Below, in pieces: positions 4,038 to 58,470 of a stretch of 64,000 bases of DNA. Numbering within the stretch: position 1 is the first letter of the stretch; every line of letters starts with the position of its first letter. The notes under the pieces were generated by a model that made no database searches, was not told the DNA's origin, and saw only the letters and a program-made list of their open reading frames with translations. Both the position numbers and the translations under genes were made by a program. The stretch comes from a virus (taxonomy: Duplodnaviria; Heunggongvirae; Uroviricota; Caudoviricetes). The stretch is taken from IMG/VR virus record IMGVR_UViG_2526164631_000023. The stretch is one strand, 5' to 3'.

Positions 4038-4050
4038 AACTCTAATGATT

Positions 4051-36648: not shown

Positions 36649-36666
36649 TCGCCTTGTTAAGTTAAA

Positions 36667-37873: not shown

Positions 37874-37999
37874 ATTAATTTGATGTTTCTAAATCGGAAT
37901 GTATGATCTGCATCATCGACTGAAGTCATCCATTGCTGAAATTTTTAGTTGATCTTCCATGTTTTCAGGCTTATATTCATGTCGTCGTAGCAAATTCTG

Positions 38000-38200
38000 C
38001 GACCGGGTTTAGCAGCCTGAATACGAATGCGGACAACCGCAGATATCCGATATTGCGGTATTTTTGTGTCCGTAAAACCACGTTACGCCCGAATTATGGT
38101 GGGGCGTGATGGGGAGGCTTCGGCCTGCTGGTTTCATTCGTGCCAGTCTGCTAACCCCGTCACGTCCTGCCACCCGTTTAGCAGCGGGTGCGCAGGTTGT
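38000..38200 (+). ncRNA. candidate c4-like antisense RNA / structured leader
   Basis: GGGTTTAGCAGC (about 38004) and CGTTTAGCAGCGGG (about 38174) are both complementary to GTCTGCTAACCCC (about 38146); hairpin CACCCG-TTTAGCAG-CGGGTG. Confidence 0.2.
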
Positions 38201-39363: not shown

Positions 39364-39387
39364 CCCCGGCCTGGCCGGGGCTTTTTT
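39364..39387. terminator. bidirectional rho-independent terminator
   Basis: CCCCGGCCTGGCCGGGGCTTTTTT. Confidence 0.6.
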
Positions 39388-39872
39388 CATGCCTCATTAG
39401 TTGAGGTTGCTGCGTCTCCGACTGGTAACAGAGCGGTATTGCGTGGTTCGCCAGCAGGCCAGCGATAGCCAGACACTCTTGATGTTGGGAATGCGCGAAT
39501 ATTAACCGCATCCCCCTGGTTCCCACCCAGGACAAGCAGATCGCCATTGGCGCGGCGTCCGACAACGAAGCCTACGTGCCCACCGCCTACGCGGGTAAAT
39601 ACAACGATACATCCGTATGCCGGTGTATCTAATTTCTCGCCCCAATCCAGATAGGATTTTGCCGACTCAAATCTTGTTGAGCGGATGCCTACACGTTCCA
39701 GCATTGCACCGACAAATGCTGCGCACCACGGCGTTTCATCGTCTTTAATTCCGCCGCGCTTGATGTCGCGCCAGAACTGAACGATTTCAGGGTTGTGTTT
39801 AGCGCCTTTTATTTCAGTCAGGCCAATGTGCTTACGGGCTTCAATTAGCCAGCGAGGTTCAATGTTTGCCAT
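39387..39872 (-). CDS. putative cell-wall peptidase (NlpC/P60- or CHAP-like)
   Basis: 161 aa; Cys...His arrangement (PWCAAFVGAM ... GGGHVGFVVG) typical of papain-like amidases. Confidence 0.4.
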   Translation of the reverse strand: MANIEPRWLIEARKHIGLTEIKGAKHNPEIVQFWRDIKRGGIKDDETPWCAAFVGAMLERVGIRSTRFESAKSYLDWGEKLDTPAYGCIVVFTRVGGGHVGFVVGRRANGDLLVLGGNQGDAVNIRAFPTSRVSGYRWPAGEPRNTALLPVGDAATSTNEA

Positions 39873-39947
39873 ATTTTTCTCCCGGTCATGGGTTAATAAG
39901 TAGGCAAACTATGGGGAGTATGTGATTTTGACGGTAGTATCGTCCCC

Positions 39948-42900
39948 GTGAAAATAACATTCTCCATACCCTCTCAACCGTACCGCATAGCGGAATTTTT
40001 ACGGTTTAGAGGGGGAAATCCTTTGGACAAACTACTTCATTCAATCAGTGAAGCCTCCAGCTTAGGCGAACTGATTGAAATTGTTAGTCGGTTGCATAAA
40101 TTACGAGCTGTTGCGACCTTTGGCGTCAGGAAAGCCGATGGCGTCAGTATTCAGAAAACACGCCGGGCAGCAAACAATGCCGCAGTAAATCTTCTTAATT
40201 CCCTTCCGCCCGGCTTCGATGGGGCGAAATTAACTGACGAACAACGTCAGATTCTTGCCGGGTATACCGGTGAAGGCGGCCTGACAGATGGTGAGGGCAG
40301 CCAATACGAATACTACACGCCACAGTTTATGGCTGAAGGTATATGGGATCTGTTTGCTGGCTACGGTATTGATGGCGGGCACGTACTGGAACCATCAGCG
40401 GGCACAGGTATTTTCCAGGAGACAAAACGACAGGGCATGATAATGACCAGCGCCGAACTGTCTCCGATTTCCGGTCGAATAAACCAGCTTTTGCACCCGG
40501 AAGACGATGTGAATATCGGGGCGTTTGAGGCGCTGGCGGCGAAAGACGCAATGTATGATCACGCTGTTGGTAACGTACCGTTTGGTGAAGGGCGTTCCGG
40601 TGTCGCCGGGCTTGATCCGGCATATGCAAACGAGAAGAACGTTGGCAATTACTTTGTGCTGCGCACGATCGACAAGGTTAAGCCTGGTGGGCTTATCGTA
40701 TTGGTGGTGCCGAATGGCATGACCGATGGTGCGAAATATAAAAAATTGCGCGATAAAGTCAGCCGTAAAGCGGAATTTTTGGGCGCGCATCGTATGCCTT
40801 CCGGTACGTTCAGTGAATCAGGTACAGATACCGTGGTGGACGTATGGGTATTGCGTAAACACCCGGAAGCCTTCCTGGAGATGATCCCCGATACGGATGA
40901 TTCGACGCTCAAATCGGCAAACGTCCTTTGGGATACCTTCCTCAAAGGAAAATGGTTTACAACCGAAGGGAAGCGATTTGTTTACGGCGACATGGAACGT
41001 ACCAGCTTCCGCAATACCCTGGTGGTGAAAAAAGACGGTCGTGTATCCAATGAGTCGATGAAAACCGCGCTATCTCGTCGCTTTGATAGTCGCATCAATT
41101 GGGATTTGCTCGGCGTAACTACTCAGGCATGGCAGGGCGCGAAAGTGGGCGATAAACGCCTTGTAGGCGGTATCTGGCATGAGTTTGATGGTCTGAAATG
41201 GGTTAAGGACACGACAACCAAATCCTCCGCGCTTGATGTAAGTCGATATGGTGTTTCGACGTTTGGCGATCTGCAGATCGCGTTTCAGTCAACAAATGGC
41301 ATTCTGGCTTTGTCATGGGACCAGATATCGGCGATCGCGTCTGACTATCCATCGGTTGTCAGTGATGAAGTGGCAGCAATGATTCGCTTTGCTGGCAAGC
41401 AGCGAGAAAAAGACAGGGAGCGCGTTATGCGCGGTGCACTGATAGGTCAGTTGATCAACAAGGCACTTGATTTGCGTAACCTGGGGGTGAACGTTGATGA
41501 CAAACTGGCAGATGCATCCCGCCTGGCGGCAGCAGAAGTTGCGAAGTATGGACCACCGCACGCGATTAAGCTGAATGGGCTTGCTGAAGCTGGCGCTAAA
41601 AACTGGATGACGTTCACTGGCAATGTGAAACAGGATGGTTCCACTTCTGACCTTCTGGCAGGGCGACTTGATGTAACGGATGGTGCTGCCGGTATTGACT
41701 TTACGCGTCCTGAACAAGTGATAGCACATCTTTTTAGTGATGTAGCCCTTAATCCTATAACGCTGGGCGACTTTCGTGAGGCGTTTGCTGGTGAACTGCC
41801 AGAGGACGACGACGCGGCCCTTGAATACCTGGCGAAATTTGATGATATCGCTATTGATGGGTATGGCTGTCTGCTGCCGATGGACCGCGCCACCAGCGGC
41901 GATGTTGCAACCAAAACAGCACTGCTGATGGGCTGGCGTGATGCGTCAACAGGTGAGCAGAAAGCGAACTTTGAGCGTCAGTTGGCGAAAATCGAAGAGA
42001 AACGTATTTTCACGCCACTAAATAAAGTCACCGTTAATCTGAATGCCCGCTGGCTGGATCGCCGCTTGATAAAAGAGTTCCTGGCAGAGCAGGGCTATGA
42101 CGAGTTTAAGTACACTGAACCTGATCTGAAGGTCGTCGATGGCATTCTGGTATCTCCGGACGATTACGAAGGTAAGGACGGGGTATTTACCGGCTATCAG
42201 CTACGAACCGTAAACGGCAAAAACGGGAATGAGTTCAAGAAGGCCAACAATAAAGACGGCTTCCTGAACCAGTTAGAAAACTACCTGAACGGTGTTAAAC
42301 CGCGTGGGCAGAACGCTAACGAGTACCTGGATAAAATTGCTCAACTGGAAGTTAGTTTTAACGACTGGTTACGCACTCACCCGCAGGCTGATCAGATAGC
42401 CCGCGAGTATAACGACGCATTCAATGGTTTCATTCCGTTCACGCATTCTGACGCACCGCTTGGCCTGGAAGGGCTTAGTGGAAAGCGCATTCCTCTTACT
42501 TATCAGAATGAAGAAGTTCGGCGCTTGTCAGAAGATGGGCGCGGCATCATGGGATTTGGTACCGGGCTGGGTAAAACCACGACCGCGCTTGCGCTTGAGG
42601 CGTATAACTTCGAAACAGGTCGCACTAAACGCACGTGTATTGTTGTTCCGAAGGCGGTTTATCAGAACTGGTATCACGAGGCACAGAGTTTCTACAGTGC
42701 TGATGCCTTCGCCAATATGATGTTTATCGGTTTGGATGAAGTTCGTGATGACAGCGGAAATATTCTGACCGCGCCGGTGCTTGATGAAAATGGCGAACCA
42801 CGCCTCGACAGTAACGGGCAGCCTCTTACCAGAAATGTTGTGAAAGAGTCCGCCAGCGCCGTTATCGTTCAGCGTATGAACATGATCCCGTCGTCAAATT

Positions 42901-45900
42901 GGCGAACGGTCATCATGACAAAAGAACAATTCGCGTCTATCCCGCTACGAGAAAAAACCATCGAGGAGAACTCACAGCAAGCTGTCTTTAATGCTGTGGA
43001 AATGGGGCGTCTTGACCTGGCGTCCGGTAAACACCGTGATGCGCAGAAGAAGAACAAGATTAAGGATCAGGCCGCGAATACCGGTACAACGAAGAAGCAG
43101 AATATCCCGTACTTTGAGGATATGAACTTCGATAGCGTGATTGCCGACGAGGGGCATAATTACCGCAACTCCTTTAATGCCGGGCGTGAAGCGGGACAAC
43201 TGGCATATTTGCCTAACCCGGCAGTATCCAAGATGGCCCGCGACATGGCTGTAAAAGCTGCGTACATGATGAAACGCAACAACGGGCGTGGTGTAGTCAT
43301 GCTGACGGCAACTCCGCTGGTGAACAGTCCGATTGATGCCTTCAACATGCTGTCTACTGTCATTCCGCAGGAAGAGTGGATGCGCATGGGTATTGTTACG
43401 CCGGATGATTTCGTTCGCGTGTTCGGCAAAACAGCCACAGTTCAGGTTCAGAAAATTTCCGGTGAGGTGGAAGAGAAGCAGGGGCTGGTGGGCTTCCAGA
43501 ACCTTGATGGTCTGCGTGGTATTTTCCACCGTTGGACCACTCTGAAGACTGCCGCAGATGTCGGAGCGACGGTTAAAATTCCCGATATCATCGAGAACAC
43601 CTTGCAGATCCCGATGACAGGGGAGCAGGAGGCTGCTTATGAAGAGCTTCGTAAGCGTGCTCAGGAGTTAAGTCGCAATGATGAGCTGACAGTCGATGAA
43701 AACGGGCATATCACTAACGACAAACCGGATGATTTCATCTTCTCCATCATCCGCGACATGGATAAGGTTGCTATAGATCCGGATCTGTATGCCAGTGCGA
43801 TTACATTCCAGTTCCCCGTTGAGCTTGCAGACAAGGTAAAAGCTATTGCTGATGCCCTGCCAAAAGTCGCAGGCGGTAAAGTGGCAGATGATGCAGACGA
43901 GGCCGAAGAAGACGGCGCTGGTGGACTGGTCAGTACGCGTACCAGCAAGGTAGTGAAGACCACCTTTAGTGAACATCCGGCGCATGTTGAAATACGCGCC
44001 AGCATTGAACTGGAAGCTGAAATACTGAAGGCCATTGCTGCCGCCGGGATTGATCTGCAGCAGGTATCACACCCCATCCCACCGAAGTATGCCGCGCTGA
44101 TCGAAAACCTTCGTGAAGGTCTGAAGAACGGTAAACAAATTGTCTTCATTGATGAAAAAGCCCAGCACCAGAAGCTGCGCCGTATTATCGCCAGTGCACT
44201 GCAAATGCCGGAGCAGGAGATAGGCATTATCAATGCGACGACCGTTAGCCAAGCTGGCGGCATCAAGCTGAAGAAGGTGAATAAACCGACTGAACCTACT
44301 CCGAATAAAAACGGTGAATACAAAGAAGGGGCATGGGAAACCTACTACAGCAAACTTGCCCAATATGAGGATTATCTCTCAGCTAAAAATGATGCTGGCC
44401 TTGAGGGCATGGAAGGTATTGCCGCCGACTATAACGAAGGTCGCACGCGCATCATAATCTGTAACAAGAAGGCTGAAGTAGGTATTAACCTGCACATCGG
44501 GACAACCGATATCCACCACCTGACACTACCCTGGACACCAGCCAGTATCGACCAACGAAATGGGCGCGGTGCGCGCGTAGGGTCACCGCAAGAGAAGGTC
44601 AATGTTCACTACTATTGTGGCAAAGGCACATTCGATGACTTCCGTCTGGATACGCTTAAACGTAAGAAAGACTGGATCAAGATGGTGATGACCTCCGACA
44701 TGTCAGAGATCGCCAATGGTGATGCGGATGATGCTGATGAACGCGCCATTATGCTGGCGGCAAACCCGGAAGAACGCCGCGCAATCATGGCTCGCCAGGC
44801 GCAAGAGCGTGAAGAACGTCTGAAACTGAAAGCACAGCGCGAGGCCAACAATGCTCTCGATATCTACCTGAAAGCGGCAAACGCCGCCGGAAAAGATATC
44901 GGCATGATGGAGACAGAACTGAAAAGCGCGATGGAACAGATAGAGTATTACCAGCGAAATCTTGACGACCTGATAAAAGCGGGTACGAACAGGAATGGGC
45001 AAAAATACGCGCTTGAGCAGTTGAGTAGCTACAGAAAACGTGCGCGGGTGCTGCGGTTTGCGATCACCAGGGCAAAAGACGCGGATACCATAATGAAACG
45101 CTCTCGTGGTGATGTGGAGCGCGCTATTAAGTCTGGTGTGCTGGATATCAGTATCGATGTTATTCAGAACCCACAGGAATATATGCGCACTGACAAGAAT
45201 ATCCTGTTGCATAAAGGTAGTTATTACCGTGCAGTCATTGATGATCGCGAAACAACAGCGATTGTCCGGGTGGAAAAAATTGACGGTGAAAAAGCACAAT
45301 ACCTCTGCCGTATCGCCTGGCTGGATAGAGCAAGTCGTTACGCTCGAGCACCGGGGTCAATCATTACATTGCCGTTTGACTCTGTGATTGAAGCGGTAAC
45401 TTTTGAAGAGGGGGTAGCTGAATCGCGCGCAACGGCTGCGCGAGGTGTTCAGTGCCACCAGCTATCAACAATACTTACTCGCGATCAGTTCTATGATGCT
45501 ATTCGCAATGGGGTAATGAATGTTATTGCTGGTAAACCTGGTAATGCATGGGGCGGTGGGTCAGCTATTAAATACTGGGCATATCGCACAGATGATGGTC
45601 AGATCGCGCTGTCATCGGCCTATGATGGCGTGATAGGCCAAAAAATCGGGCGAGCATCGGATATAGCACCTGAGCGATGGATATATCCTGATGGCAACGA
45701 CGAGGCGCTGAAGCGTGAAGTGGCAAAAATACAAGCCAGTGATAACCCGCTGAATATCGTGGACGGCGAGGGATTCCTCCAGGCATTGTATGGGTATGAT
45801 TACATCCAGGGAATGCAGGCATGGGGCGCACAGGCAACGATGGATGATGTTGCCCAGGAGTTCGAAAACTGGATGGCTGGGCGTGGTCTGTCAGGTCGTT

Positions 45901-46859
45901 CGCTTAATAAAGTCACTTCTGAAGATATTCTTAGCTTGTTCCGCAAACCGTCCGGAGAAGGTCTGGAATCATTCTGGAGGACCGTGCTGGCATACCGTTT
46001 ATTCCAGGGCAGGATGAAAGCCTTTAGCAATATCGATGATATTGAACGGATGTTTAATCAGGTCAAGATCGCGAAAATTAAGGCGAAGATCGAAAAAACA
46101 CGTTCTGCGCTGGTGGCCTGGCGCGATGCATTGTTTGAGCAATATAAATCACTCAGTGATGCAGATGGATGGGCGGCATTGGAACAGCTGGCGAATAATG
46201 GGGTAGATGGAGCGAAACTCGCCATTGTTCAGGCTGATAACCCCCTGGAATCACCGGCAGCACAGTGGATTAAGGTGGGGGCTGTCATCAATGCATTTGA
46301 TGAAAAACACATTAGTAAGGACGATTTTGCTGATGCTGTTTCTGTTAATCGCCTGGTAGAAATGGCTACCCGCCGCGCCCGTGAGTTGAAAGACGGCGAC
46401 TATGTGAATGAGTTGCCGGATACGCTCAAATCGGCAACGTGGCAGGACTATGTATCGCTGAAAAACGGCGGGGCCACTGAATCAGAGATCGCGGAAAGGC
46501 TTGAGCAGGCTGAAAGCAAAAGAGAAGAGCAGGCGGCAGTGGCTGAAGCCAGAGCTGATGAAGCGGCGAATGATGACTATATCATTGTGGTTAATGATAA
46601 GCCGATTCGCGCTAAGGCGCGTGTTCGCGGGCGCTGGTGGAGCGTCAGCGAGGACGTTGGCGCGGTTTATCTCATTGCCGACCAACCAGGTTCCTCGACA
46701 ATACGGAACGCCAAAGACGCGATTAAGAAGATTGGCGGGCGTTTCTGGAATTTTGAAGCAAACCCGGTTGCTGATGTGAACTTTGACCGTCCTGCATGGA
46801 TGGTATCTACGCGTTACTCGGTAGATGAACTGCGTAAAATAATCGCCGATGCGGCCTAA
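39948..46859 (+). CDS. DarB-like giant N6-adenine methyltransferase / SF2 helicase (anti-restriction type), GTG start uncertain
   Basis: 2303 aa; MTase motifs VLEPSAGTGIF and NVPF; helicase motifs GFGTGLGKTTTA, VIADEGHNYRN, LTATPLVNSP, QRNGRGARVG. Confidence 0.8.
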   Translation: MKITFSIPSQPYRIAEFLRFRGGNPLDKLLHSISEASSLGELIEIVSRLHKLRAVATFGVRKADGVSIQKTRRAANNAAVNLLNSLPPGFDGAKLTDEQRQILAGYTGEGGLTDGEGSQYEYYTPQFMAEGIWDLFAGYGIDGGHVLEPSAGTGIFQETKRQGMIMTSAELSPISGRINQLLHPEDDVNIGAFEALAAKDAMYDHAVGNVPFGEGRSGVAGLDPAYANEKNVGNYFVLRTIDKVKPGGLIVLVVPNGMTDGAKYKKLRDKVSRKAEFLGAHRMPSGTFSESGTDTVVDVWVLRKHPEAFLEMIPDTDDSTLKSANVLWDTFLKGKWFTTEGKRFVYGDMERTSFRNTLVVKKDGRVSNESMKTALSRRFDSRINWDLLGVTTQAWQGAKVGDKRLVGGIWHEFDGLKWVKDTTTKSSALDVSRYGVSTFGDLQIAFQSTNGILALSWDQISAIASDYPSVVSDEVAAMIRFAGKQREKDRERVMRGALIGQLINKALDLRNLGVNVDDKLADASRLAAAEVAKYGPPHAIKLNGLAEAGAKNWMTFTGNVKQDGSTSDLLAGRLDVTDGAAGIDFTRPEQVIAHLFSDVALNPITLGDFREAFAGELPEDDDAALEYLAKFDDIAIDGYGCLLPMDRATSGDVATKTALLMGWRDASTGEQKANFERQLAKIEEKRIFTPLNKVTVNLNARWLDRRLIKEFLAEQGYDEFKYTEPDLKVVDGILVSPDDYEGKDGVFTGYQLRTVNGKNGNEFKKANNKDGFLNQLENYLNGVKPRGQNANEYLDKIAQLEVSFNDWLRTHPQADQIAREYNDAFNGFIPFTHSDAPLGLEGLSGKRIPLTYQNEEVRRLSEDGRGIMGFGTGLGKTTTALALEAYNFETGRTKRTCIVVPKAVYQNWYHEAQSFYSADAFANMMFIGLDEVRDDSGNILTAPVLDENGEPRLDSNGQPLTRNVVKESASAVIVQRMNMIPSSNWRTVIMTKEQFASIPLREKTIEENSQQAVFNAVEMGRLDLASGKHRDAQKKNKIKDQAANTGTTKKQNIPYFEDMNFDSVIADEGHNYRNSFNAGREAGQLAYLPNPAVSKMARDMAVKAAYMMKRNNGRGVVMLTATPLVNSPIDAFNMLSTVIPQEEWMRMGIVTPDDFVRVFGKTATVQVQKISGEVEEKQGLVGFQNLDGLRGIFHRWTTLKTAADVGATVKIPDIIENTLQIPMTGEQEAAYEELRKRAQELSRNDELTVDENGHITNDKPDDFIFSIIRDMDKVAIDPDLYASAITFQFPVELADKVKAIADALPKVAGGKVADDADEAEEDGAGGLVSTRTSKVVKTTFSEHPAHVEIRASIELEAEILKAIAAAGIDLQQVSHPIPPKYAALIENLREGLKNGKQIVFIDEKAQHQKLRRIIASALQMPEQEIGIINATTVSQAGGIKLKKVNKPTEPTPNKNGEYKEGAWETYYSKLAQYEDYLSAKNDAGLEGMEGIAADYNEGRTRIIICNKKAEVGINLHIGTTDIHHLTLPWTPASIDQRNGRGARVGSPQEKVNVHYYCGKGTFDDFRLDTLKRKKDWIKMVMTSDMSEIANGDADDADERAIMLAANPEERRAIMARQAQEREERLKLKAQREANNALDIYLKAANAAGKDIGMMETELKSAMEQIEYYQRNLDDLIKAGTNRNGQKYALEQLSSYRKRARVLRFAITRAKDADTIMKRSRGDVERAIKSGVLDISIDVIQNPQEYMRTDKNILLHKGSYYRAVIDDRETTAIVRVEKIDGEKAQYLCRIAWLDRASRYARAPGSIITLPFDSVIEAVTFEEGVAESRATAARGVQCHQLSTILTRDQFYDAIRNGVMNVIAGKPGNAWGGGSAIKYWAYRTDDGQIALSSAYDGVIGQKIGRASDIAPERWIYPDGNDEALKREVAKIQASDNPLNIVDGEGFLQALYGYDYIQGMQAWGAQATMDDVAQEFENWMAGRGLSGRSLNKVTSEDILSLFRKPSGEGLESFWRTVLAYRLFQGRMKAFSNIDDIERMFNQVKIAKIKAKIEKTRSALVAWRDALFEQYKSLSDADGWAALEQLANNGVDGAKLAIVQADNPLESPAAQWIKVGAVINAFDEKHISKDDFADAVSVNRLVEMATRRARELKDGDYVNELPDTLKSATWQDYVSLKNGGATESEIAERLEQAESKREEQAAVAEARADEAANDDYIIVVNDKPIRAKARVRGRWWSVSEDVGAVYLIADQPGSSTIRNAKDAIKKIGGRFWNFEANPVADVNFDRPAWMVSTRYSVDELRKIIADAA

Positions 46860-46895
46860 CAGATAAGGAGCGGCCCCAACCGGGGCCGAATTTGA

Positions 46896-47330
46896 ATGAC
46901 GACATTAATTGACACTGTAAAACCGACGGAATCCTACCTTGATGACAATTTGCCGCAGGCGCTCAATGGCAGGAGTGAAGAGGCGTTTCTGGATGCATAT
47001 CTGAATGGCATGGTGGAAAGGCTGAAACGAGATCCACAGCTTTATCACCTTTATGGGCCGTGGTGGCCTGCGCTTAAAACGTTATTGCTGGAGCGCGGCG
47101 ACATATCATTTGGACAAGTTGTAGATAGTGATGTGGCAGAGATCTACAAAATGAGTCGCCCGGCGCTTACGGTTTTGGCTGGGCATCTGTATTCGAGCGA
47201 TCGCCTGGAAAATGACGCGGTATACAATCCTGTTCATGCTCTGGAAGTCGCACCTTATGCCGATGATACAGAGCCATACGTGTACACAAGTTACGACGAG
47301 TCTATAGAGAAATATCGAATCATGGGGTAG
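46896..47330 (+). CDS. hypothetical protein
   Basis: 144 aa, ORF track. Confidence 0.35.
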   Translation: MTTLIDTVKPTESYLDDNLPQALNGRSEEAFLDAYLNGMVERLKRDPQLYHLYGPWWPALKTLLLERGDISFGQVVDSDVAEIYKMSRPALTVLAGHLYSSDRLENDAVYNPVHALEVAPYADDTEPYVYTSYDESIEKYRIMG

Positions 47331-47332
47331 CC

Positions 47333-47593
47333 ATGCGAAAGAATCGTAGGTTTACGGTCGAAGACCTAAAGGAATATTCCATATCGAAGGGGTATATCCT
47401 TGAGTTCCACCGATACAAGAAGGTTTTTACGCTGCGAAAAGCAGAAAACCCTGCGAACTGGAGCTGGATATACTTTCCTCACACCGATGATAAGTTGGTA
47501 GAACTTGTTGATGATTTAACCTATGAAGGTTGGTTGATCGCAATCGACAAGACAATCAAAGAATTATCCGAACAGGATAAAATAACCCTTTAA
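47333..47593 (+). CDS. hypothetical protein
   Basis: 86 aa; hairpin GGGTAAATGCCATGCGATTTACCC follows. Confidence 0.3.
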   Translation: MRKNRRFTVEDLKEYSISKGYILEFHRYKKVFTLRKAENPANWSWIYFPHTDDKLVELVDDLTYEGWLIAIDKTIKELSEQDKITL

Positions 47594-47729
47594 AAATAAC
47601 AGGTTGGGTAAATGCCATGCGATTTACCCTCCTTGTTGATTAAGGTCACTCTTTACTCTAAAAGCAAATCCGACCTGTTGCATATAGACCATCCTTGAGT
47701 AGTATCTCTCTTGTTTTACAAATCTAACG

Positions 47730-48224
47730 TTGTTGTTATTATTTCGCATATTTACTATCAATGAGTGTGTTAGAAAAATAGCGCGAAAGAGAAGGCGTCG
47801 CAGTGAATATTCTGAAACATCCCCACATGCCGCAGCTCTTAGAGAACTGGAGAAAAACCCAGATCTAATCAAAAGGAACCATGAGCATTACGAGCAGGTT
47901 CGCGTCCTGGACTGGTTGTATCGCAATATGCGTTATGTGTATGAGCATACTCACGCCACTCCAAACGGTGGTCTGCGAGGCATAAGGACGGCAATAAAAA
48001 TGGTGGCAGAGGGCCAAAAGAAGGTATATCCCGATCTTTCTATAGACCTTGCTTGTGGGGGATACCACGGAATGCGCATTGAGATGAAACATGGGAGAAA
48101 TCGCCTGACTCCCGAACAACTCGTCTGGATGACTCGCCTCACTGAAGCCGGTTACTACTGCTTTGAGGCGCGCAGTGCCGCTGAAGCCATAAAAGCTATC
48201 ACGGAGTATGTTTGTCTTGATTAA
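47730..48224 (+). CDS. VRR-NUC domain nuclease (true start downstream of the motif, probably non-ATG)
   Basis: EQVRVLDWL ... GYHGMRIEMKHGRNRLTPEQ fits the VRR-NUC/PD-(D/E)xK pattern; no in-frame ATG between the motif and the domain. Confidence 0.45.
   Translation: MLLLFRIFTINECVRKIARKRRRRSEYSETSPHAAALRELEKNPDLIKRNHEHYEQVRVLDWLYRNMRYVYEHTHATPNGGLRGIRTAIKMVAEGQKKVYPDLSIDLACGGYHGMRIEMKHGRNRLTPEQLVWMTRLTEAGYYCFEARSAAEAIKAITEYVCLD
47766..47776 (+). promoter_or_regulatory. TGTGTTAGAAA motif copy
   Basis: TGAGTGTGTTAGAAAAATAG. Confidence 0.4.
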
Positions 48225-48238
48225 ACGGAGAAATCGTT

Positions 48239-48439
48239 TTGCGTTTACTTAACGTGGCAGAACTTATCCCTGCAGGAACTAATGCTATCGCTCGTCGTCG
48301 CTCATGGCAGCAGGCTCTATGTATTGAGATCTCGAAACGTATCAATGGAAGTTTTGAAGCTCGCAATATTGTTACTGGCGATAAGGTTCACATAACCCCG
48401 GAAAGTGCAAGCGCTGATGATTGGGAGTTTGTACATTGA
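48239..48439 (+). CDS. small hypothetical protein (TTG start)
   Basis: 66 aa ORF. Confidence 0.25.
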   Translation: MRLLNVAELIPAGTNAIARRRSWQQALCIEISKRINGSFEARNIVTGDKVHITPESASADDWEFVH

Positions 48440-48735
48440 GCAAAAAATATTATGTGAGTCTGGCGTTCGCTGACGATGCGGGGAGGACGCGGAGTATCAC
48501 GTTGAGCACACCGGTTAAGGCTGTGACAGCGCCGTTAATCCGTGAAGCTCTCAGAGAGCTGGAATTGGGGGAAAACTCGGCACTGTTGTCGGTTAGTTGG
48601 TTCGGGAAAATGTCAGAGAAACAATACGTGGATGGAGTTACCCCAATAACAGTAATGAGGCTACTTTCATTGCTGCAATGGGCCATCGTACCTGTATTTA
48701 TCGCGTATCTTATTTATCAGGCTGCAACACAGTAA
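48436..48735 (+). CDS. small protein with C-terminal TM helix (TTG start after GGAG)
   Basis: MSKKYYVSLAF...LLSLLQWAIVPVFIAYLIY. Confidence 0.3.
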   Translation: MSKKYYVSLAFADDAGRTRSITLSTPVKAVTAPLIREALRELELGENSALLSVSWFGKMSEKQYVDGVTPITVMRLLSLLQWAIVPVFIAYLIYQAATQ

Positions 48736-48742
48736 TTGCATA

Positions 48743-48769
48743 AAAACCCGCCAATTAGCGGGTTTTTTG
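48743..48769 (+). terminator. rho-independent terminator
   Basis: AAAAACCCGCCAATTAGCGGGTTTTTT. Confidence 0.7.
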
Positions 48770-48810
48770 TTTATTGCATCTTCCGATACCGTCATCAAAC
48801 TAATAAAATA

Positions 48811-48819
48811 TGTTAGAAA
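48811..48819 (+). promoter_or_regulatory. TGTTAGAAA motif copy
   Basis: AATATGTTAGAAAACTAATTT, about 15 bp before the RBS of the 48834 gene. Confidence 0.4.
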
Positions 48820-48833
48820 ACTAATTTAAAAAA

Positions 48834-50057
48834 GTGACGGGAACAGCAATGAGTCAACACACTGATACTTCTAATCTGGAAATTATCTCGACAGCAATTG
48901 AAACGCTGCGCACACAAATCGCTCTTATACAGAAACGGAATCCGGGTGATGACCTGTCAAAGCGACTGCACGAGAGTGTCATTGCCACTACAGATAACCT
49001 GGTGGCGGAAATCAACAAGCTGCTTGATGATGGGGCAGTTGATTACAATAAGCTGGTGGATCAGTTTGAGGAATACCAACAAGCAGTTAATGATGGCTTG
49101 ATCCGTTTTTCACAAGTCACAGGCGTATCAGCGACAGTTGAAAGCCTGGGTGATGCAGTTAATCAATTTGCCGCGAATATGCGTAATGAGATCGGCAATC
49201 TGGAAGCGCGTCTTGAACAGGCAAATACACTGCGTAAATCTGCCGAAGCCGATTTGAACCGTTACAAAAAAGACTATCCGCCAAGCCTGACAAAGCGGCT
49301 GGATGTTGCGGAGAAGGATAACCGCACGCTGAAAAGAGAGCGCCGGGAACTAAAAGAGCGTTTAACCAAGCTCAATCAGCAATGCATTGATTATCAAGGC
49401 GAAGGCGTCACACTGCGTAAAAAGTTGGCTACAGCGCAGAGCATTATCGAAACATTAAAGCGAGAGTGCTCACAGCTTGGTCACGATCTGAACCGTGCTT
49501 GTGGCATGGGACAAAGACCAGAGACATTTCCACTTATGTATGATGGAAGGGATGCCATTGCCTACATCCATGAGTATCCGCACGGCCTGGTTGCGGAAAC
49601 TGGGCAGCGTGGCGAAGCACTGCTGACGGCTAATTACCATCAACAAATCAGAACCAATCGCCTGTTAACGATGGATGTGATCCCATCGGTATGGGGAACG
49701 CCGCTTTACTATCGCCTGCCGGGCTTCGAAAAGGACTGGAATACCGACATAGACGAATGTCTCGCAGATAAAATTATGGCGTACCTGGAGACGGATTTTC
49801 CGCGCTTATATCGCCGGATTATGGACTCTAAGGATGCGCCAATCGATGAATTAAAAATGCGTCCGGAGACGCTGGAGGCAATCAAGCAGACGGAGTTTGA
49901 TACTGTATTCAGTGTGGCCTGCATTCCAAGCTGTTTCCATGAAAGCATCCCGTTCATGCAAGGAGATCGTCGTCAGGAAATCATTGACGCTTGCCGGGTA
50001 TGGGCGAACGAATGGGATAAGAAGAATGGGGGTGTAGAAGATCTTTATGGGAAATAA
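48834..50057 (+). CDS. hypothetical protein with N-terminal coiled coil
   Basis: 407 aa ORF. Confidence 0.4.
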   Translation: MTGTAMSQHTDTSNLEIISTAIETLRTQIALIQKRNPGDDLSKRLHESVIATTDNLVAEINKLLDDGAVDYNKLVDQFEEYQQAVNDGLIRFSQVTGVSATVESLGDAVNQFAANMRNEIGNLEARLEQANTLRKSAEADLNRYKKDYPPSLTKRLDVAEKDNRTLKRERRELKERLTKLNQQCIDYQGEGVTLRKKLATAQSIIETLKRECSQLGHDLNRACGMGQRPETFPLMYDGRDAIAYIHEYPHGLVAETGQRGEALLTANYHQQIRTNRLLTMDVIPSVWGTPLYYRLPGFEKDWNTDIDECLADKIMAYLETDFPRLYRRIMDSKDAPIDELKMRPETLEAIKQTEFDTVFSVACIPSCFHESIPFMQGDRRQEIIDACRVWANEWDKKNGGVEDLYGK

Positions 50058-50068
50058 TGTGTTAGAAA
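50058..50068 (+). promoter_or_regulatory. TGTGTTAGAAA motif copy followed by TAAAAT
   Basis: TAATGTGTTAGAAATCTAAAATCACA, near-identical extended element to the 4051 copy. Confidence 0.45.
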
Positions 50069-50214
50069 TCTAAAATCACAATTCGAATGTATTGATTGTG
50101 AAGATAACTTAACATAGAATTTTCCTTGCTGGTGGGCGGTACCCACGTTTCGCTTGCTGGGCTTGATAGTCACTTATTGGTTATTGTTCGCCCACCAGCA
50201 TTTAACAAATTAAA

Positions 50215-50224
50215 GTGTTAGAAA
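50215..50224 (+). promoter_or_regulatory. GTGTTAGAAA motif copy followed by TATAGT
   Basis: AAAGTGTTAGAAATGTATAGT. Confidence 0.4.
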
Positions 50225-51292
50225 TGTATAGTAATGCAAGAGCACGCTTTGGCACCGTGCAGGCCAAAGTTCAGCAGGTTTAGTGCGGAAAGTGGTTTCA
50301 GAGAGAGCACTTTGCGGAGTAAACGACAATACATGTTGAGCCACGGAAGGTCTTTTTAAGGTGTTCATTGATGATGGTCCGGCAGAGAGTAACGGTACAT
50401 GCTGCATCTAATCATCAATGCACATCTTCAACATTAAGGAGGCATAGGGATTTTTGTGGCGGTTACCTTTTGCCCTGAGTCTCCTTAATGTTGCGGTAAT
50501 GCACCTATGCGGATGTGGCCTTGCATTGTGTCTTGAAAGAATGGGGTAAGGCCGGGGATATCCCCAGGGGGAGGCACCCCCGCTGCAACGAACAGCCACA
50601 GACGGCAGTCGAGTGATGGAAACGTGTAAAGACTTTAAACCTCGTTACGGCTGGCGTGGCAAACGCGACAACCGAGACAGAGCGGTGACGGGCGGAGAGA
50701 GTGCCGCATCAAGAAAGAAGCCGACTTGTGATCCCTTTCAGCGGGCATTTGAAAGTGAATCCAGCTCAGGCAGTCGGCTTCTTTCTTGTGTGAGATGTAG
50801 CGTATTTGCCCATCTTCGGGTGGGCTTTTTTAGGGTTTTCGTCATGGTTAGCGACTTTGCGGCGGTTTAGAAACTGACCATTAAAGTAAATGCAAACGAT
50901 GATCTGATGATGGTAGCGGCCTAAGAAGCCAGACGCCACGGGGTATGAGTCGTCCCCCGTCAAAAAAATCGACCGCAGAGTGTCCCCGTCTGTGTATTAG
51001 GGAACGGGGAGGCATAACAGGCAAGGGCGCTGGTGTGATTAACCAGATGAATGAGAAGGGTCAGGTCTTTCTGGTCAGCGCCCTTACCTGTTGCGTCCTT
51101 CCCGCGTAACAGCCATTGCTTAATGGCATCCTGGGAGAACTTCTTGTAACGGGTATATCCCGTCATGCTGAAGGCGCTAATCACGCTGGAAGCCAGGGTT
51201 GTGCATCCCCTGTTACCGAATTGCAGCCAGGGCGCGGTGCGCCGAAAAGCATACGGAGGTGGAAGCCCTCGCCGGAGACGTACCCGGCAAGT

Positions 51293-51369
51293 GATGGTGT
51301 AGCTCAGTAGGATAGAGCAGCAGCCTTCTAAGCTGTCGGTAGGTGGTTCGAATCCACCCACCATCGCCA
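51293..51369 (+). tRNA. tRNA-Arg (anticodon TCT)
   Basis: Manual cloverleaf: acceptor GATGGTG/CACCATC, D-stem GCTC/GAGC, anticodon loop CTTCTAA, T-arm GGTGG-TTCGAAT-CCACC, CCA end. Confidence 0.7.
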
Positions 51370-51374
51370 ATTTA

Positions 51375-51461
51375 GGGGAGTTAGTCCGTAGGGGTAGCGG
51401 GGTAGACTGTAAATCTACTGTCATTGCGACTCGGGTGGTTCGACTCCATCACTCCCCACCA
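51375..51461 (+). tRNA. tRNA-Tyr (anticodon GTA), long variable arm
   Basis: Acceptor GGGGAGT/ACTCCCC, anticodon arm GTAGA-CTGTAAA-TCTAC, T-loop TTCGACT, CCA end. Confidence 0.65.
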
Positions 51462-51465
51462 AATT

Positions 51466-51541
51466 GCCGGTTTAGCTCAGTTGGTAGAGCAGTCGCTTTG
51501 TAAGCGAATGGTCAGCGGTTCGATCCCGTTAACCGGCACCA
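51466..51541 (+). tRNA. tRNA-Thr (anticodon TGT)
   Basis: GCCGGTTTAGCTCAGTTGGTAGAGC...TTTGTAA...GGTTCGATCC...AACCGGCACCA; close to E. coli tRNA-Thr as recalled. Confidence 0.7.
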
Positions 51542-51995
51542 ACACAACAGGTAAGAGCATTTGTAGAGTTCGACTCTCTACCGTGGGCTTTTTCCCGCGA
51601 TGCGAGCCATAAATGCTCTTACCGTTGTGATGAAGTGCAGCTCTTTGAAGCAACCAGAAGATAAGCATCTGGCTTCACAACATAAACCGCAGGAACGACC
51701 AATAAACGGTAGTCCGTATGGAGAACACCCCGTTGAGGAAGAGGTCTGGCCGGAACCGTAACCGGCACTACAACGTTGAGAACACTGGCGTAACGGGGTC
51801 ATATCCCAATCTACGAATAAATGTTGCGTTGCAGCGTGACAACCAGTGTTCTCAACATTGTGGTGAATGCGCAGGCTGATGCGCGAAAGACATTGCAGCT
51901 ATTGCGGAAAAGAGCTGTTCGGCGGGGCAATTAAACGCCCGTGAGAGTCTGAAATAACCGCAAGCCGGAGATCAGCACCGGTCGCCACAATAACG

Positions 51996-52082
51996 GGAGA
52001 GTAGGGAGCATGGTGCTCAAGCGGTCTTGAAAACCGTCCCATTGCGCAAGCGATGATGGTTCGATTCCATTACTCTCCGCCA
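51996..52082 (+). tRNA. tRNA-Ser (anticodon TGA), long variable arm
   Basis: Acceptor GGAGAGT/ACTCTCC, anticodon arm CGGTCTTGAAAACCG, T-loop TTCGATT, CCA end. Confidence 0.65.
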
Positions 52083-52373
52083 GTGCAACGTTAAGAGTAT
52101 TTGGCTAATTAAGCGAATGCCGGAAGCAGAACCGGATCACCAAATGCGTACAGGCGTCATCGCCGCCCAGCCAGCCAAGTGCTCTTACCATTGCGGTGAA
52201 TGCGGCTAAGCGCACGCGGAACAGTTAAAACAGTAAAGGTGGTCTTTTTACTGGCGTAACGAGAATCCATAAGTGATCCGGCGTTAATTGTTAACTGGTT
52301 AACGTCACCGGGAGGCACCCGGCACCGCAACCTAACAGCAATGGCGTTTTGTCTTAAAAGGTGGCTGCAAGTG

Positions 52374-52502
52374 ATGGATTTTTGGGCGTTTGCCGATAAA
52401 AACCCGGAGTGGACATTATTGTTTCTGCTGGTGGTTGCATACGGGGTAGAGCAAGCGGCAAAAGCCTTACGCGGTTCTGGCAAAAAGCGTAAGCGTAATT
52501 AA
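52374..52502 (+). CDS. small hydrophobic peptide (42 aa) inside the tRNA island
   Basis: AGGTGG RBS 10 nt before ATG; MDFWAFADKNPEWTLLFLLVVAYGVEQAAKALRGSGKKRKRN (one TM plus basic tail). Confidence 0.25.
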   Translation: MDFWAFADKNPEWTLLFLLVVAYGVEQAAKALRGSGKKRKRN

Positions 52503-52511
52503 CAGTAATCT

Positions 52512-52587
52512 GGCCCTTTAGCTCAGTGGTTAGAGCGGGCGACTCATAATCGCACGGTCACCGGTTCAAGTCCGGTAGGGGCCACCA
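52512..52587 (+). tRNA. tRNA with anticodon CAT, most like tRNA-Ile2 (lysidine type); elongator Met not excluded
   Basis: GGCCCTTTAGCTCAGTGGTTAGAGCGGGCGACTCATAATCGC...GGTTCAAGTCC...GGGGCCACCA, close to E. coli ileX-type tRNA as recalled. Confidence 0.65.
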
Positions 52588-53039
52588 CATTTGGTTGTAA
52601 CACGGCGTATGGCACATGCGTCGTTAGCGGTCTGGTGTAGCTGTTAGGTACCTTTTACTAACACTGCATGGGCACACCAGGTAGCCGGAATGTGCAAGCC
52701 CCGTTCATAGCGTCGGACTGCGGATTCACCATCCTGGCGATTCGGTGTGACAGCCGGAAGAGCACGGCGCACAACAGGAAAAGGCGTTTAATTAGCGTGA
52801 GCGCCGTTTCCGTTGTGGTAATTGCGGCTATGCGCTCGTGACGAAGCCATTTTCATTCACTACGTTCTGATAAGTGACGTCGCCAGGAGTGGCTAACCTG
52901 GCAGGTGGAGGCACCACCGCCACAACTCCTTTCAATTCATCATATAGCCGCTCAGGCTGTACCCCTTAATTAATACGAAGTTACGACATCACTACCGGTA
53001 CTTCCGGGGGATAGTCGCGCGTGTAAAAAAGGAGACGTT

Positions 53040-53615
53040 ATGTTAATGGCGAACGATAACGCATATGCAGAAGAAGATCTCATTTTGAGTGACTTCATAG
53101 GGAAGCGGGAACGCTGGACCAAAAAGCGAGAGGAACTTTACGCCTCATTAGTTCGCAAAGGCGTCAATATCGAAACCGCACAGAGCGGTGATATGACAGT
53201 GGTAAGCGTGGATTTGCACGGTGTAAGCGTGTCAGCAATCAATCATGAGCCATACGTTGCGTTATCCGAGTCAATGGTAAGGTTAGTTAAGTTCCTGAAG
53301 TACACAGAAGCGAATAATGTAATCATTGGCAAAAAGAATATCCCTTTTTCCTCGGCTTTTTACTGGATGATGAAAGGGCTTGATGCCCGGCGGACATCAT
53401 GGCCTAAAGGGAGCTATATATCGATGTTCCGTGGCAGCATTGGCAGCAAAGAAAAGCTCTTCGAATTCTTGCCGGAAGAGGCATTCGATATTGTGGAAGG
53501 GTGCGATGTGATGGTGATGCCTCGCCTGGTAATGATGAATGGTGATTTACAGGCGCAGACAGACTGGTTTGCAACTGGTGTGGATATTATCGCGACTGAC
53601 TGGGAGGCTTTCTGA
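53040..53615 (+). CDS. hypothetical protein
   Basis: 191 aa; first gene of an overlapping pair (ATGA). Confidence 0.35.
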   Translation: MLMANDNAYAEEDLILSDFIGKRERWTKKREELYASLVRKGVNIETAQSGDMTVVSVDLHGVSVSAINHEPYVALSESMVRLVKFLKYTEANNVIIGKKNIPFSSAFYWMMKGLDARRTSWPKGSYISMFRGSIGSKEKLFEFLPEEAFDIVEGCDVMVMPRLVMMNGDLQAQTDWFATGVDIIATDWEAF

Positions 53616-54007: not shown

Positions 54008-54114
54008 TGTTAGGTATTTAATATTAATTTTCTAATATAATCATCTTTTTACCAGTCTATACAGTTTTAACATTCTCATTATCATCCCCTCGGTCATTTC
54101 CTGCCGGGGGATTA

Positions 54115-57376: not shown

Positions 57377-57379
57377 AAG

Positions 57380-57396
57380 CCCCGCGGTGCGGGGCC
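57380..57396. terminator. bidirectional hairpin between convergent genes
   Basis: GCCCCGCGGTGCGGGGC. Confidence 0.5.
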
Positions 57397-57404
57397 GGTG
57401 GTGA

Positions 57405-58442: not shown

Positions 58443-58461
58443 TATTCCTACTCGATTTAGT

Positions 58462-58470
58462 TTTCTAACA
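58462..58470 (-). promoter_or_regulatory. TGTTAGAAA motif copy (minus orientation)
   Basis: AGTTTTCTAACATAAAAT. Confidence 0.4.

Follow-up and report, generated by a model that had tools for sequence, protein, structure and literature searches.

The darB–ulx anti-restriction region of a D6-like phage-plasmid and a downstream VRR-NUC nuclease unit with a putative C1 operator

In phage P1, darB heads a darB-ulx(-lxc) operon with an annotated sigma-70 promoter, PdarB, and Ulx assists the incorporation of DarB into the capsid (PMC9024508 Table 1). P1 also carries pmgM, a non-essential gene (PMC10695390) that begins with ATG, follows pmgL and belongs to a unit with a late promoter and C1-controlled promoters, as well as pmgR, whose product is required for head-tail joining (PMC9024508); pmgR-pmgS is controlled by the operators Op86a/b (OpmgRa/b), of which Op86b lies in the 5' UTR. 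Escherichia phage D6 is a P1-like plasmid prophage, and the 64,000-nt stretch of viral DNA analysed here (the window) shares 99.3% nucleotide identity with it (NC_050154 / MF356679), so that its source, judged by this match, is a D6-like, P1-family phage-plasmid. All genes of the region described below are already known from the D6 annotation, where they run from orf15 to orf9 and include darB-, ulx-, pmgM-, pmgR- and pmgS-like genes, and homologues of the remaining P1 Dar genes (hdf, darA, ddrA and ddrB) are annotated elsewhere in the D6 genome. The region is the ordinary anti-restriction (darB-ulx) region of such an element, for which most likely no unconventional mechanism is needed. It would comprise two transcription units, darB-ulx-orf13 (unit 1) and a VRR-NUC nuclease gene with orf11 and a pmgR-like gene (unit 2), and on balance we think it probable that unit 2 is placed under a C1 operator and that the nuclease of this allele is translated from TTG 47733/47730.

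The first gene of unit 1 (D6 orf15) encodes a true homologue of P1 DarB, with 40% identity along the whole protein (~2250 residues), in agreement with the sequence-only reading, which had described a DarB-like methyltransferase fused to an SF2 helicase. The motifs LEPSAGTG, GNVPFG, GFGTGLGKT, DEGH and QRNGRGAR are all found, and the Pfam search returned SNF2-related, ResIII and Helicase_C, with N6_Mtase slightly under the cut-off, for an N6-adenine methyltransferase-like N-terminal domain joined to an SNF2/SF2 helicase. The 2303 aa proposed in that reading describe the longest ORF (GTG 39948..46859), but the protein itself is likely ~2278 aa long and encoded by 40023..46859 on the plus strand, because Met1 of P1 DarB aligns to TTG 40023, where the alignment begins, because this codon is preceded by the Shine-Dalgarno sequence GAGGGGG, and because a late-promoter match lies 3' of GTG 39948. 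By its energy, the anti-Shine-Dalgarno duplex is also stronger at TTG 40023 (-11.1 kcal/mol) than at GTG 39948 (-3.2), and D6 orf15 is annotated with the start equivalent to TTG 40023. By homology to P1, DarB would be a capsid-packaged methyltransferase-helicase that is injected with the DNA and shields it from type I restriction.

The probable promoter of darB falls between GTG 39948 and TTG 40023, at 39952..39972 on the plus strand (AAATAACA-ttctcca-TACCCT), with one mismatch to a late pattern of D6 type, AAAT(C/A)ACA-N7-TAnnnT, for which 15 matches were found against 6.7 expected. This pattern sits upstream of the capsid, tail-fibre, ddrB-like, portal, lysozyme-like, lydA and darB genes, and every exact copy is upstream of a late operon. 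One exact match (AAATCACA-N7-TAnnnT, 39908..39928, minus strand) is divergent from darB and would serve the lysozyme-like gene orf16 (39387-39872, minus strand), which precedes darB where P1 has prt/pro. The apparent use of a D6-type late promoter likewise distinguishes this darB from that of P1. The gene order darB then ulx is common to both elements: the ulx homologue (46896..47330, plus strand, 144 aa) is 46% identical to P1 Ulx and matches phrog_1629, 'Ulx-like anti-restriction', with E = 1.7e-58, and its product would, as in P1, help to load DarB. The third gene differs, as orf13 (47333..47593, plus strand, 86 aa; phrog_6844, function unknown) occupies the place of lxc and its product has no similarity to P1 Lxc detectable by BLASTP. 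An intrinsic-terminator-like hairpin at 47606..47640 on the plus strand (GGGTAAAT...ATTTACCC and a T-rich tail), whose stem is kept in relatives at 76-80% identity, would close the unit opened by the late promoter.

Unit 2 begins with the nuclease gene (D6 orf12), whose longest ORF spans 47730..48224 on the plus strand and encodes 164 aa. Its assignment to the VRR-NUC family, made earlier from the sequence, holds: the product is 57% identical to P1 PmgM and matches PDB 4qbl with E = 3.7e-23, with the PD...E-x-K motif aligned and all catalytic-motif residues intact, although the Pfam VRR_NUC match is weak. The D6-like nuclease shares with P1 PmgM and the VRR-NUC proteins (4qbl) a basic N-terminal extension before the core domain. 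Unlike pmgM, the gene has no ATG start and heads a short unit with pmgR. Transcription of unit 2 would come from one or two sigma-70-type promoters within 47678-47742. We infer promoter function for Pa (TTGCAT-16 nt-TAGTAT, 47678..47705, plus strand) from its two hexamers, which do not change in any relative although the spacer between them does. A second candidate, Pb (TTTACA-16 nt-TATTAT, 47715..47742, plus strand), matches 10 of 12 consensus positions, has a TG upstream of its -10 hexamer and corresponds to TTGATA-16-TATTAT in the relative L004; were Pb the promoter used, TTG 47730/47733 would be absent from the mRNA.

Downstream of these candidates, and within the longest nuclease ORF as had been noted before, lies a copy of a recurrent motif (47763..47779; core TGTGTTAGAAA at 47766-47776). 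Its 10-mer, allowing up to one mismatch, occurs 14 times versus 5.4 expected from shuffles, none of 100 of which reaches 14, and the core of the present copy is invariant across lineages of 76-100% identity while its flanks diverge. The distribution of the motif in the genome and its resemblance to the C1 operator of P1 are the reasons for which we take it, most likely, as a putative operator of a D6-type C1 repressor and not as a promoter. Copies precede c1 (19-28 nt before the ATG), lpa (78-87 nt before the ATG), repL and pmgS, and also the c4/icd/ant immunity locus, where the copy is immediately 5' of the Rfam C4 antisense RNA and its a1b1 targets. The P1 operators and the D6-type motif are both asymmetric 17-bp elements with about ten copies and a TCTAA core, and both occupy the c1, lpa, immI and repL loci and also precede pmgR and pmgS; Olpa of P1 lies 71-87 nt before lpa in the orientation of the D6-type copy. 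In reverse complement the motif (AwTTT-TCTAAC-AyAwww) matches the P1 operators (ATTGC-TCTAAT-AAATTT) at 9-10 of 17 positions and differs at 7-8, and since D6 C1 is only 21% identical to P1 C1, this similarity could be partly coincidental. The copy at the nuclease gene retains only the core half and has an A-tract of variable length. It would lie 3' of the promoter and 5' of the conserved stretch of the gene, next to a start codon, in the layout of Op86b between PpmgR and the pmgR ATG in P1, and the phage C1 repressor would control unit 2 through it.

The alternative, to which we give little credence, is that the motif is an Lpa-dependent late promoter, with transcripts beginning at ~47790 and translation of the nuclease then starting further 3' or in an unconventional way, or with only orf11 and pmgR expressed. 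Most copies do point toward a downstream gene, one of them 143 nt upstream of the capsid gene; a TAAwwT hexamer follows nine of ten copies at a fixed distance, resembling the P1 arrangement of box, 4 nt and -10; and a promoter is needed between the terminators flanking unit 2. Against this, the copies at c1, lpa, repL and c4/ant mark classical C1-controlled loci, two copies face away from the nearest gene, and none precedes the portal, lysis/darA, tail-fibre or darB operons, where the other motif with a proper -10 is found. At the nuclease copy itself the hexamer is missing, with TAGCGC in its place here and TGATGC and ACAATC in relatives, and purifying selection acts on codons that would lie 5' of the predicted transcript start. 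The sequence-only reading had assumed that the motif forces a downstream start, which would be true only of a promoter; an operator is transcribed, and a start codon upstream of or within it is therefore allowed.

In a comparison of about 30 relatives, the nuclease gene comes under strong purifying selection immediately 3' of the operator: from 47778 onward the D6 group shows 30 synonymous versus 3 non-synonymous variants, and the silent changes directly after the operator are, among others, CGA to AGA or CGG and AAG to AAA, so that the constrained part extends from ~47781/47784 to 48224. No constraint at the protein level is seen in the annotated N-terminal extension: most variants 5' of the operator are non-synonymous, also across the 15 codons between TTG 47733 and the operator, and a stop codon, TAG, replaces TTG 47730 in two relatives. 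The functionally conserved protein starts at ...ARKRRRR (47781 onward). Within the operator, the polymorphic A-tract (47774-47778) has 4, 5 or 6 A among relatives, and at least three independent changes of its length have taken place. The ancestral allele is A5, which also predominates (about 75%) and is carried by all deep branches of the D6 group; A4 is seen in about 20% of plasmids, spread over two independent clades, and A6 in one small derived clade (L012, L032, L049). Both A4 and A6 put TTG 47730/47733 out of frame. A second A5 run within the ORF (47853-47857) has no indel in 20 of 20 sequences with an intact ORF, a count that leaves out the frameshifted relative L020, and this difference between the two tracts would be explained more simply by a start 3' of the first.

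The nuclease of this allele requires a non-ATG start, as had been proposed as one possibility, since, as also noted then, no in-frame ATG separates the motif from the domain; the first one after the motif (47928) lies inside the domain. Another mechanism, the other possibility raised, would probably not be required under the operator reading. We infer either TTG 47733/47730 or, less likely, AUA 47778. The TTG pair is the only canonical in-frame start of the A5 allele, lying in an AU-rich leader that is essentially unstructured (-1.5 to -2 kcal/mol); no Shine-Dalgarno sequence was found for it, and TTG starts are also used in the neighbouring darB, orf11 and pmgR-like genes. The resulting 163/164-aa protein would have its first ~15 residues encoded by regulatory DNA and unconstrained as protein. 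Initiation at AUA 47778, directly 3' of the A-tract, would instead give a 148-aa (M)ARKRRRR... product, and we regard it as unlikely. It is the sole near-cognate codon between the variable tract and the first synonymous-only codons (47784 onward), is in frame in A4, A5 and A6 alleles alike, and would account for tolerated indels in one tract beside the invariant run in the ORF. It is also the positional equivalent of the TTG-ATG start in the sister lineage L004/L042, where an in-frame TGA upstream means that the start follows the motif, and its N-terminus resembles those of L004 (MRRRRHH...) and an Enterobacter relative (MVGKRRPARSK...). The codon has a weak Shine-Dalgarno-like GAGTG (-3.1 kcal/mol) but no strong one, AUA initiates very poorly in E. 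coli, and no natural gene of that species is known to us to start with it; moreover, the A4 alleles could be merely tolerated nulls, given that P1 pmgM is dispensable. If AUA were used, expression would be low, in keeping with a nuclease that may be toxic.

Translation could conceivably also begin at ATG 47761 and reach the nuclease frame through the A-tract, by -1 slippage on GAA-AAA-UAG in A5 or by heritable length switching (A6 on; A5 and A4 off), but we consider this very improbable. In A6 alleles the ATG is in frame (MGVLEKIARKRRRR...), in A5 (ATG AGT GTG TTA GAA AAA TAG) the lysine tRNA that reads AAA could shift back by one base and pair again just before the stop, and the repeated changes in tract length fit such a route. 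However, the predominant allele is the ancestral A5 and the in-frame A6 is confined to its small clade, the ATG has no Shine-Dalgarno sequence (+1.9 kcal/mol) and is mutated to ATT in L026, A4 alleles would require another kind of shift, and a five-A run is short for efficient slippage and likewise for phase variation. We attach less weight still to loss of the start in this allele, which would make the gene an untranslated young pseudogene intact only through recent origin. The lack of a canonical start with a Shine-Dalgarno sequence, the dispensability of pmgM in P1, the frameshift in L020 and the disagreement between pipelines over the start (164 aa in GenBank D6; 102, 98 or 74 aa in RefSeq plasmids) are compatible with it, whereas the excess of synonymous variants in a group whose deep branches are all A5 and the intact catalytic motif argue against it.

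The small ORFs earlier noted downstream of the large gene (144, 86 and 66 aa, and 48421/48436-48735) are all present, as is every other feature of that reading at the coordinates given there. The 66-aa orf11 (48239..48439, plus strand; phrog_7206, function unknown) has a TTG start with the Shine-Dalgarno sequence GGAG (-6.6 kcal/mol). The pmgR-like gene (D6 orf10) most likely starts at TTG 48436, overlapping the orf11 stop (TTGA), and thus spans 48436..48735 on the plus strand (99 aa); its product is 31% identical to P1 PmgR over 61 aa (E = 3e-6). An intrinsic terminator that is conserved in relatives (48742..48775, plus strand; 10-bp stem, then a T-run) closes the unit, and beyond it a full 17-nt motif copy, a putative operator conserved as far as the Enterobacter relative, stands ahead of pmgS (ATG 48849) at 48811..48827 on the plus strand. 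Differences between D6 and the window include indels elsewhere, visible as shifted c1 and capsid coordinate offsets, and, at 48025, the replacement of a Gly of the nuclease by Val, a change private to the window.

The locus studied here is already known. Window positions 46800-49000 share 99.3% identity with the P1-like plasmid prophage Escherichia phage D6 (NC_050154 / MF356679), and across 47594-48240 the identity to one E. coli plasmid in PLSDB is 100%. Because the D6 records already annotate all of the genes concerned, as 'similar to P1 darB' (orf15), 'ulx' (orf14), hypothetical (orf13), 'pmgM' (orf12), hypothetical (orf11), 'pmgR' (orf10) and 'pmgS' (orf9), the locus counts as published and annotated, and for its DarB, Ulx, PmgM and PmgR the homologous P1 genes have been characterised or catalogued. 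The coordinate offset to the published D6 genome varies along the window, being 473 bp at c1 and ~870 bp at the capsid gene (window ~4000-6000 and 50000-58500), and the window therefore carries indels relative to D6. Our scan of genome contigs returned no D6-type loci, its matches being P1-like or remoter relatives together with two remote ones. The contributions of the analysis are a revised start for darB, the interpretation of a recurrent motif as a putative operator alongside a separate late-promoter consensus, doubt about the annotated nuclease starts, and an A-tract polymorphism embedded within the operator.

The distribution and sequence of the recurrent motif, one copy of which lies at 47763-47779 in the front part of the VRR-NUC nuclease ORF (47730-48224, plus strand), point to a putative C1 repressor operator and not to a promoter. 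The 10-mer TGTTAGAAAA occurs 14 times in the window with at most one mismatch, compared to 5.4 expected, and ten copies share the asymmetric 17-nt pattern TGTTAGAAA(A/T)nTAAwwT. Copies on the minus strand lie at 58461, 19-28 nt before the c1 ATG (58442, minus strand), at 54028, 78-87 nt before the lpa ATG (54115), and at 36666, ~180 nt upstream of repL, and a plus-strand copy at 37865 precedes the immI locus. In P1, c1, lpa, repL and immI are the classical C1-controlled loci, and the placement of the motif at c1, lpa, immI (c4/icd/ant) and repL parallels that of the P1 C1 operators, including Olpa and Op86. P1 Olpa, 71-87 nt ahead of lpa, shares the orientation of the window's lpa copy, and P1 pmgR-pmgS are under Op86a/b and a sigma-70 promoter, with Op86b in the 5' UTR, 15 nt before the ATG. 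Two copies of the motif point away from the gene closest to them. At the nuclease copy, the 11-nt core TGTGTTAGAAA is unchanged across all E. coli lineages amid divergent flanks, as expected of a protein-binding site. The motif's reverse complement, AwTTT-TCTAAC-AyAwww, agrees with the P1 operator consensus ATTGCTCTAATAAATTT (ATTGC-TCTAAT-AAATTT) at 9-10 of 17 positions, TCTAA core included; the repressors themselves, however, are only 21% identical, and the D6 and P1 Lpa proteins only 31%. A sigma-70 promoter overlapping the operator was sought at every copy, and a plausible -35 at matching distance was found only at the c1 and nuclease copies.

The motif had initially been read as an Lpa late promoter, since its box-plus-hexamer layout resembles P1 late promoters. 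We rejected this reading on the strength of the copies at c1, lpa, repL and c4 and of a separate late-promoter motif; the TGTTAGAAA motif is absent upstream of the portal, lydA/darA, tail-fibre, lysozyme-like and darB genes. The separate pattern, AAAT(C/A)ACA-N7-TAnnnT, has 15 matches in the window versus 6.7 expected, with copies correctly oriented upstream of late genes. Exact copies lie on the plus strand at 4126 (capsid gene), 20142 (tail-fibre R gene), 32454 (ddrB-like gene) and 33901 (portal gene) and on the minus strand at 39908 (lysozyme-like gene), and copies with one mismatch lie on the plus strand at 28671 (lydA) and 39952 (darB). This arrangement suggests that the pattern is probably the D6-type Lpa late promoter, and candidate Lpa sites in D6-type phage can be written AAATCACA-N7-TAnnnT. 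The P1-type late box, AAGTGACTA-N4-TAnnnT, shows no enrichment in the window (3 matches versus 3.55 expected). In D6-like phage-plasmids, widespread as plasmid prophages in E. coli and Salmonella, the putative C1 operator and the probable late promoter are distinguished here as two recurrent regulatory motifs, which alters how each motif copy is to be read.

The product of the ORF that carries the nuclease copy of the motif is a predicted VRR-NUC family nuclease, an identification already made from the sequence alone and now strengthened. It is 57% identical to P1 PmgM and matches PHROG 5702, 'Holliday junction resolvase' (E = 6e-36). Taken alone, the sequence scores 21.1 bits against Pfam VRR-NUC (PF08774), under the 23.8 cut-off, and a profile of five nuclease sequences matches the solved VRR-NUC structure PDB 4qbl (E = 3.7e-23) with the PD and E-x-K elements aligned. 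The PD-(D/E)xK residues are kept, in EHYEQ (the helix-1 Glu), YPDLSID (the Asp of PD) and RIEMK (E-x-K); they align with 4qbl, and these catalytic columns are invariant in the nuclease alignment. The core domain starts at EHYEQ, preceded by a family-specific extension with a basic cluster. P1 pmgM is non-essential (PMC10695390). At 48025 the window carries a private GGA to GTA change (Gly to Val) in the conserved KKGYPD segment beside the catalytic Asp, where all 20 other D6-group sequences scored encode Gly. One related locus, L020 (IMGVR_UViG_2778261184_000002), has a frameshift near the PD motif, which may be an assembly error; it is the sole disrupted ORF among ~30 D6-group sequences.

Terminator-like hairpins at 47606-47629, after orf13, and at 48742-48767, after the pmgR-like gene, set the nuclease gene, orf11 and the pmgR-like gene apart as a separate unit. 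Within it, orf11 starts at TTG 48239 with the Shine-Dalgarno GGAG, and the pmgR-like gene, whose product is 31% identical to P1 PmgR, starts at TTG 48436, overlapping the orf11 stop, with GGGAG. Upstream of the putative operator are two sigma-70 promoter candidates, TTGCAT-16-TAGTAT (47678-47705) and TTTACA-16-TATTAT (47715-47742), and in relatives the hexamers of both are conserved and the spacers variable. Upstream of this unit, orf13 (47333-47593, 86 aa) takes the slot right after ulx, which in P1 is held by lxc, encoding an 82-aa C1 co-repressor. BLASTP found no similarity between orf13 and Lxc and we rejected that identity; given how far D6 C1 has itself diverged from P1 C1, orf13 could still be a diverged functional analogue of Lxc.

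Nuclease length calls clash in GenBank/RefSeq (164, 157, 102, 98 or 74 aa for orthologues of 76-100% DNA identity), and our evidence lends little support to either the GenBank start or the RefSeq starts. The D6 group compared here comprised the window and D6 together with 18 loci from IMG/VR, 8 from metagenomes and 6 from plasmids. Between 47778 and the stop codon this group holds 30 synonymous versus 3 non-synonymous variants, a sign of strong purifying selection, and the synonymous changes directly 3' of the motif include CGA to AGA/CGG and AAG to AAA. In the TTG frame upstream of the motif, by contrast, the variants are TTG to CAG/TAG, R to C, I to L, E to G and G to W, with one synonymous. 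The synonymous excess on one side and mostly non-synonymous change on the other indicate that the constrained protein begins right after the operator. The sequence-only reading had noted that no in-frame ATG lies between motif and domain, and indeed the first one 3' of the motif, at 47928, is inside the domain; its implied assumption that the motif forces the start downstream is not supported with the motif read as an operator, which permits a start upstream of itself. Among relatives, two loci at 80% DNA identity (L004 and L042) carry an in-frame TGA upstream, with TTG-ATG following three codons past the motif core, two at 76% (L005 and L014) have a start ATG five codons before the motif, and Enterobacter relatives at 70% have a start ATG with a good Shine-Dalgarno and no motif.

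The motif's A-tract (47774-47778) has 4, 5 or 6 A across the D6 group, giving alleles A4, A5 (the window) and A6. The A4 allele occurs in ~24% of sampled plasmids, and in a neighbour-joining tree all deep branches are A5, A4 having arisen twice and A6 once. The other A5 run, inside the ORF at 47853-47857, has indels in 0 of 20 intact-ORF sequences (the frameshifted L020 excluded). The allele determines which in-frame starts exist: A5 offers TTG 47733/47730, giving 163/164 aa with a ~15-residue unconstrained leader, A6 offers ATG 47761 with the N-terminus MGVLEKIARK..., and A4 has no canonical in-frame start, leaving AUA 47778 alone. A non-ATG start, one of the options raised earlier, is thus what the A5 allele provides; TTG 47730/33 has no Shine-Dalgarno and lies in an unstructured AU-rich stretch (~-2 kcal/mol). 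If the candidate promoter at 47715-47742 is used, the transcript starts 3' of both TTG codons and they fall outside the mRNA. Several other starts were rejected. A6 as the ancestral state, with ATG 47761 as the original start, disagrees with A5 on all deep branches and A6 in one derived clade. The out-of-frame ATG 47882, a frameshifted start with the good Shine-Dalgarno AAAGGAACC, is absent in L004 and P1, and its region simply encodes the codons N-H-E. The PGAP internal starts TTG 47916 and ATG 47928 (102 and 98 aa) would delete helix 1 and the catalytic Glu, and the codons 5' of them vary almost only synonymously. In three related loci (L021, L022 and L026) TTG 47916 is ATG (Leu to Met), an internal codon taken as the start by RefSeq/PGAP.

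The comparative data thus fit the annotated nuclease start awkwardly. The account that we find most economical, and favour as a whole with moderate confidence, is that the nuclease, orf11 and pmgR-like genes would form a C1-controlled sigma-70 unit with its operator placed at the 5' end of the nuclease gene, and that in the A5 allele a TTG start lacking a Shine-Dalgarno would add a dispensable N-terminal leader to the nuclease. Its main rival is initiation at AUA 47778, which would suit the A4, A5 and A6 alleles alike and coincides in position with the start of the sister lineage. AUA initiates translation very poorly, however, and we regard this reading as unlikely. The motif as an Lpa late promoter, for all the similarity of layout, is less likely still: its placement is wrong, and no fixed-distance -10 hexamer (TAnnnT) was found at 47768, where the window has TAGCGC and relatives have TGATGC or ACAATC, with a box-to-hexamer spacing that shifts among the A4, A5 and A6 alleles.

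Slippage or phase switching at the A-tract is likewise less likely. For a programmed -1 frameshift, ATG 47761 would be the start, but this codon is ATT in L026 and has no Shine-Dalgarno, and the frame relationship is not fixed, differing among the three alleles. A silent nuclease gene, set beside the 30 to 3 ratio of variants, is also less likely. We consider distinctly improbable a broader scenario in which a strongly selected VRR-NUC nuclease lacks a usable canonical start in most D6-like phage-plasmids and has its production deliberately kept very low, through AUA 47778 or A-tract slippage, with A-tract length tuning or switching expression and repressor binding together. In that scenario, because the A-tract lies inside the putative repressor operator, variation in its length would affect both jointly, and an AUA start or an A-tract switch, if true, would be a small neat case of toxic-nuclease expression control built into an operator.

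The large protein upstream had been described as a DarB-like methyltransferase-helicase of 2303 aa, and the family assignment stands, as does the length for the longest ORF (GTG 39948 to 46859), though not for the product. In BLASTP it matches P1 DarB (~2255 aa) with 40% identity over the full length (~2370 alignment columns) from P1 Met1, which aligns with residue 26 of the ORF, TTG 40023. This codon has a strong Shine-Dalgarno (GAGGGGG, -11.1 kcal/mol), against practically none at GTG 39948 (-3.2 kcal/mol), and the late-promoter match at 39952-39972 lies 3' of the GTG. For these reasons the darB start is corrected to TTG 40023 and the product to ~2278 aa, the start also used in the D6 annotation of the darB homologue. 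Methyltransferase motifs I (LEPSAGTG) and IV (GNVPFG) are both identical to those of P1 DarB, and SF2/SNF2 helicase motifs I (GFGTGLGKT), II (DEGH) and VI (QRNGRGAR) are present. The proposed domain search bears out the helicase part, with SNF2-rel_dom (46.6 bits), ResIII and Helicase_C above their Pfam cut-offs; N6_Mtase falls 0.1 bit under (20.3 bits versus 20.4), and we know of no demonstration of methyltransferase activity for DarB itself. Directly downstream is a Ulx homologue (46% identity to P1 Ulx; phrog_1629, 'Ulx-like anti-restriction'), and homologues of hdf, darA, ddrA and ddrB are present in the same genome according to the D6 annotation. P1 DarB is packaged in the capsid and acts against EcoK and EcoB restriction, and P1 Ulx helps DarB localisation (PMC9024508); both darB and ulx are non-essential in P1 (PMC10695390). 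From this homology we infer the anti-restriction mechanism of the window's DarB, and knowledge of Dar anti-restriction is unchanged by our analysis. The darB 5' leader (39979-40022) contains nested inverted repeats, ACCGTA..TACGGT around CCGC..GCGG, which may form a leader structure between the putative late promoter and the Shine-Dalgarno. The sequence AGTTAGAAAACTA inside darB (42271-42283) has the 11-mer GTTAGAAAACT in common with three copies of the putative operator (4053, 48811 and 58461), which could be coincidence or mark a repressor site within the gene.

Several other features of the window were recorded. Rfam places a C4 antisense RNA at 38092-38177 (plus strand, 71.9 bits) and an a1b1 target element at 37971-38023 (plus strand, 52.2 bits), which sit between repL and icd/ant in a P1-type immI immunity locus, just downstream of the motif copy at 37865. 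A repA-like gene (11523-12386, minus strand) is flanked by ten copies of ATGTGTGCTG(GAGGG), which form two oppositely oriented clusters (11301-11514 and 12448-12534) and are probably plasmid replication iterons. The commonest 9-mer of the window, TGCTGGTGG, contains the Chi octamer GCTGGTGG and has 14 copies over the two strands together, for example at 2157, 8611, 36033, 50127, 52426, 53877 and 57273. The ~0.9 kb after pmgS (50058-50960) holds no long ORF, and the corresponding D6 stretch is unannotated; it carries two operator-motif copies (50060 and 50216) along with a late-promoter match at 50073 that has one mismatch, and is followed by tRNA genes at 51293-51538 and 52512-52584, four in the window versus three annotated in D6.
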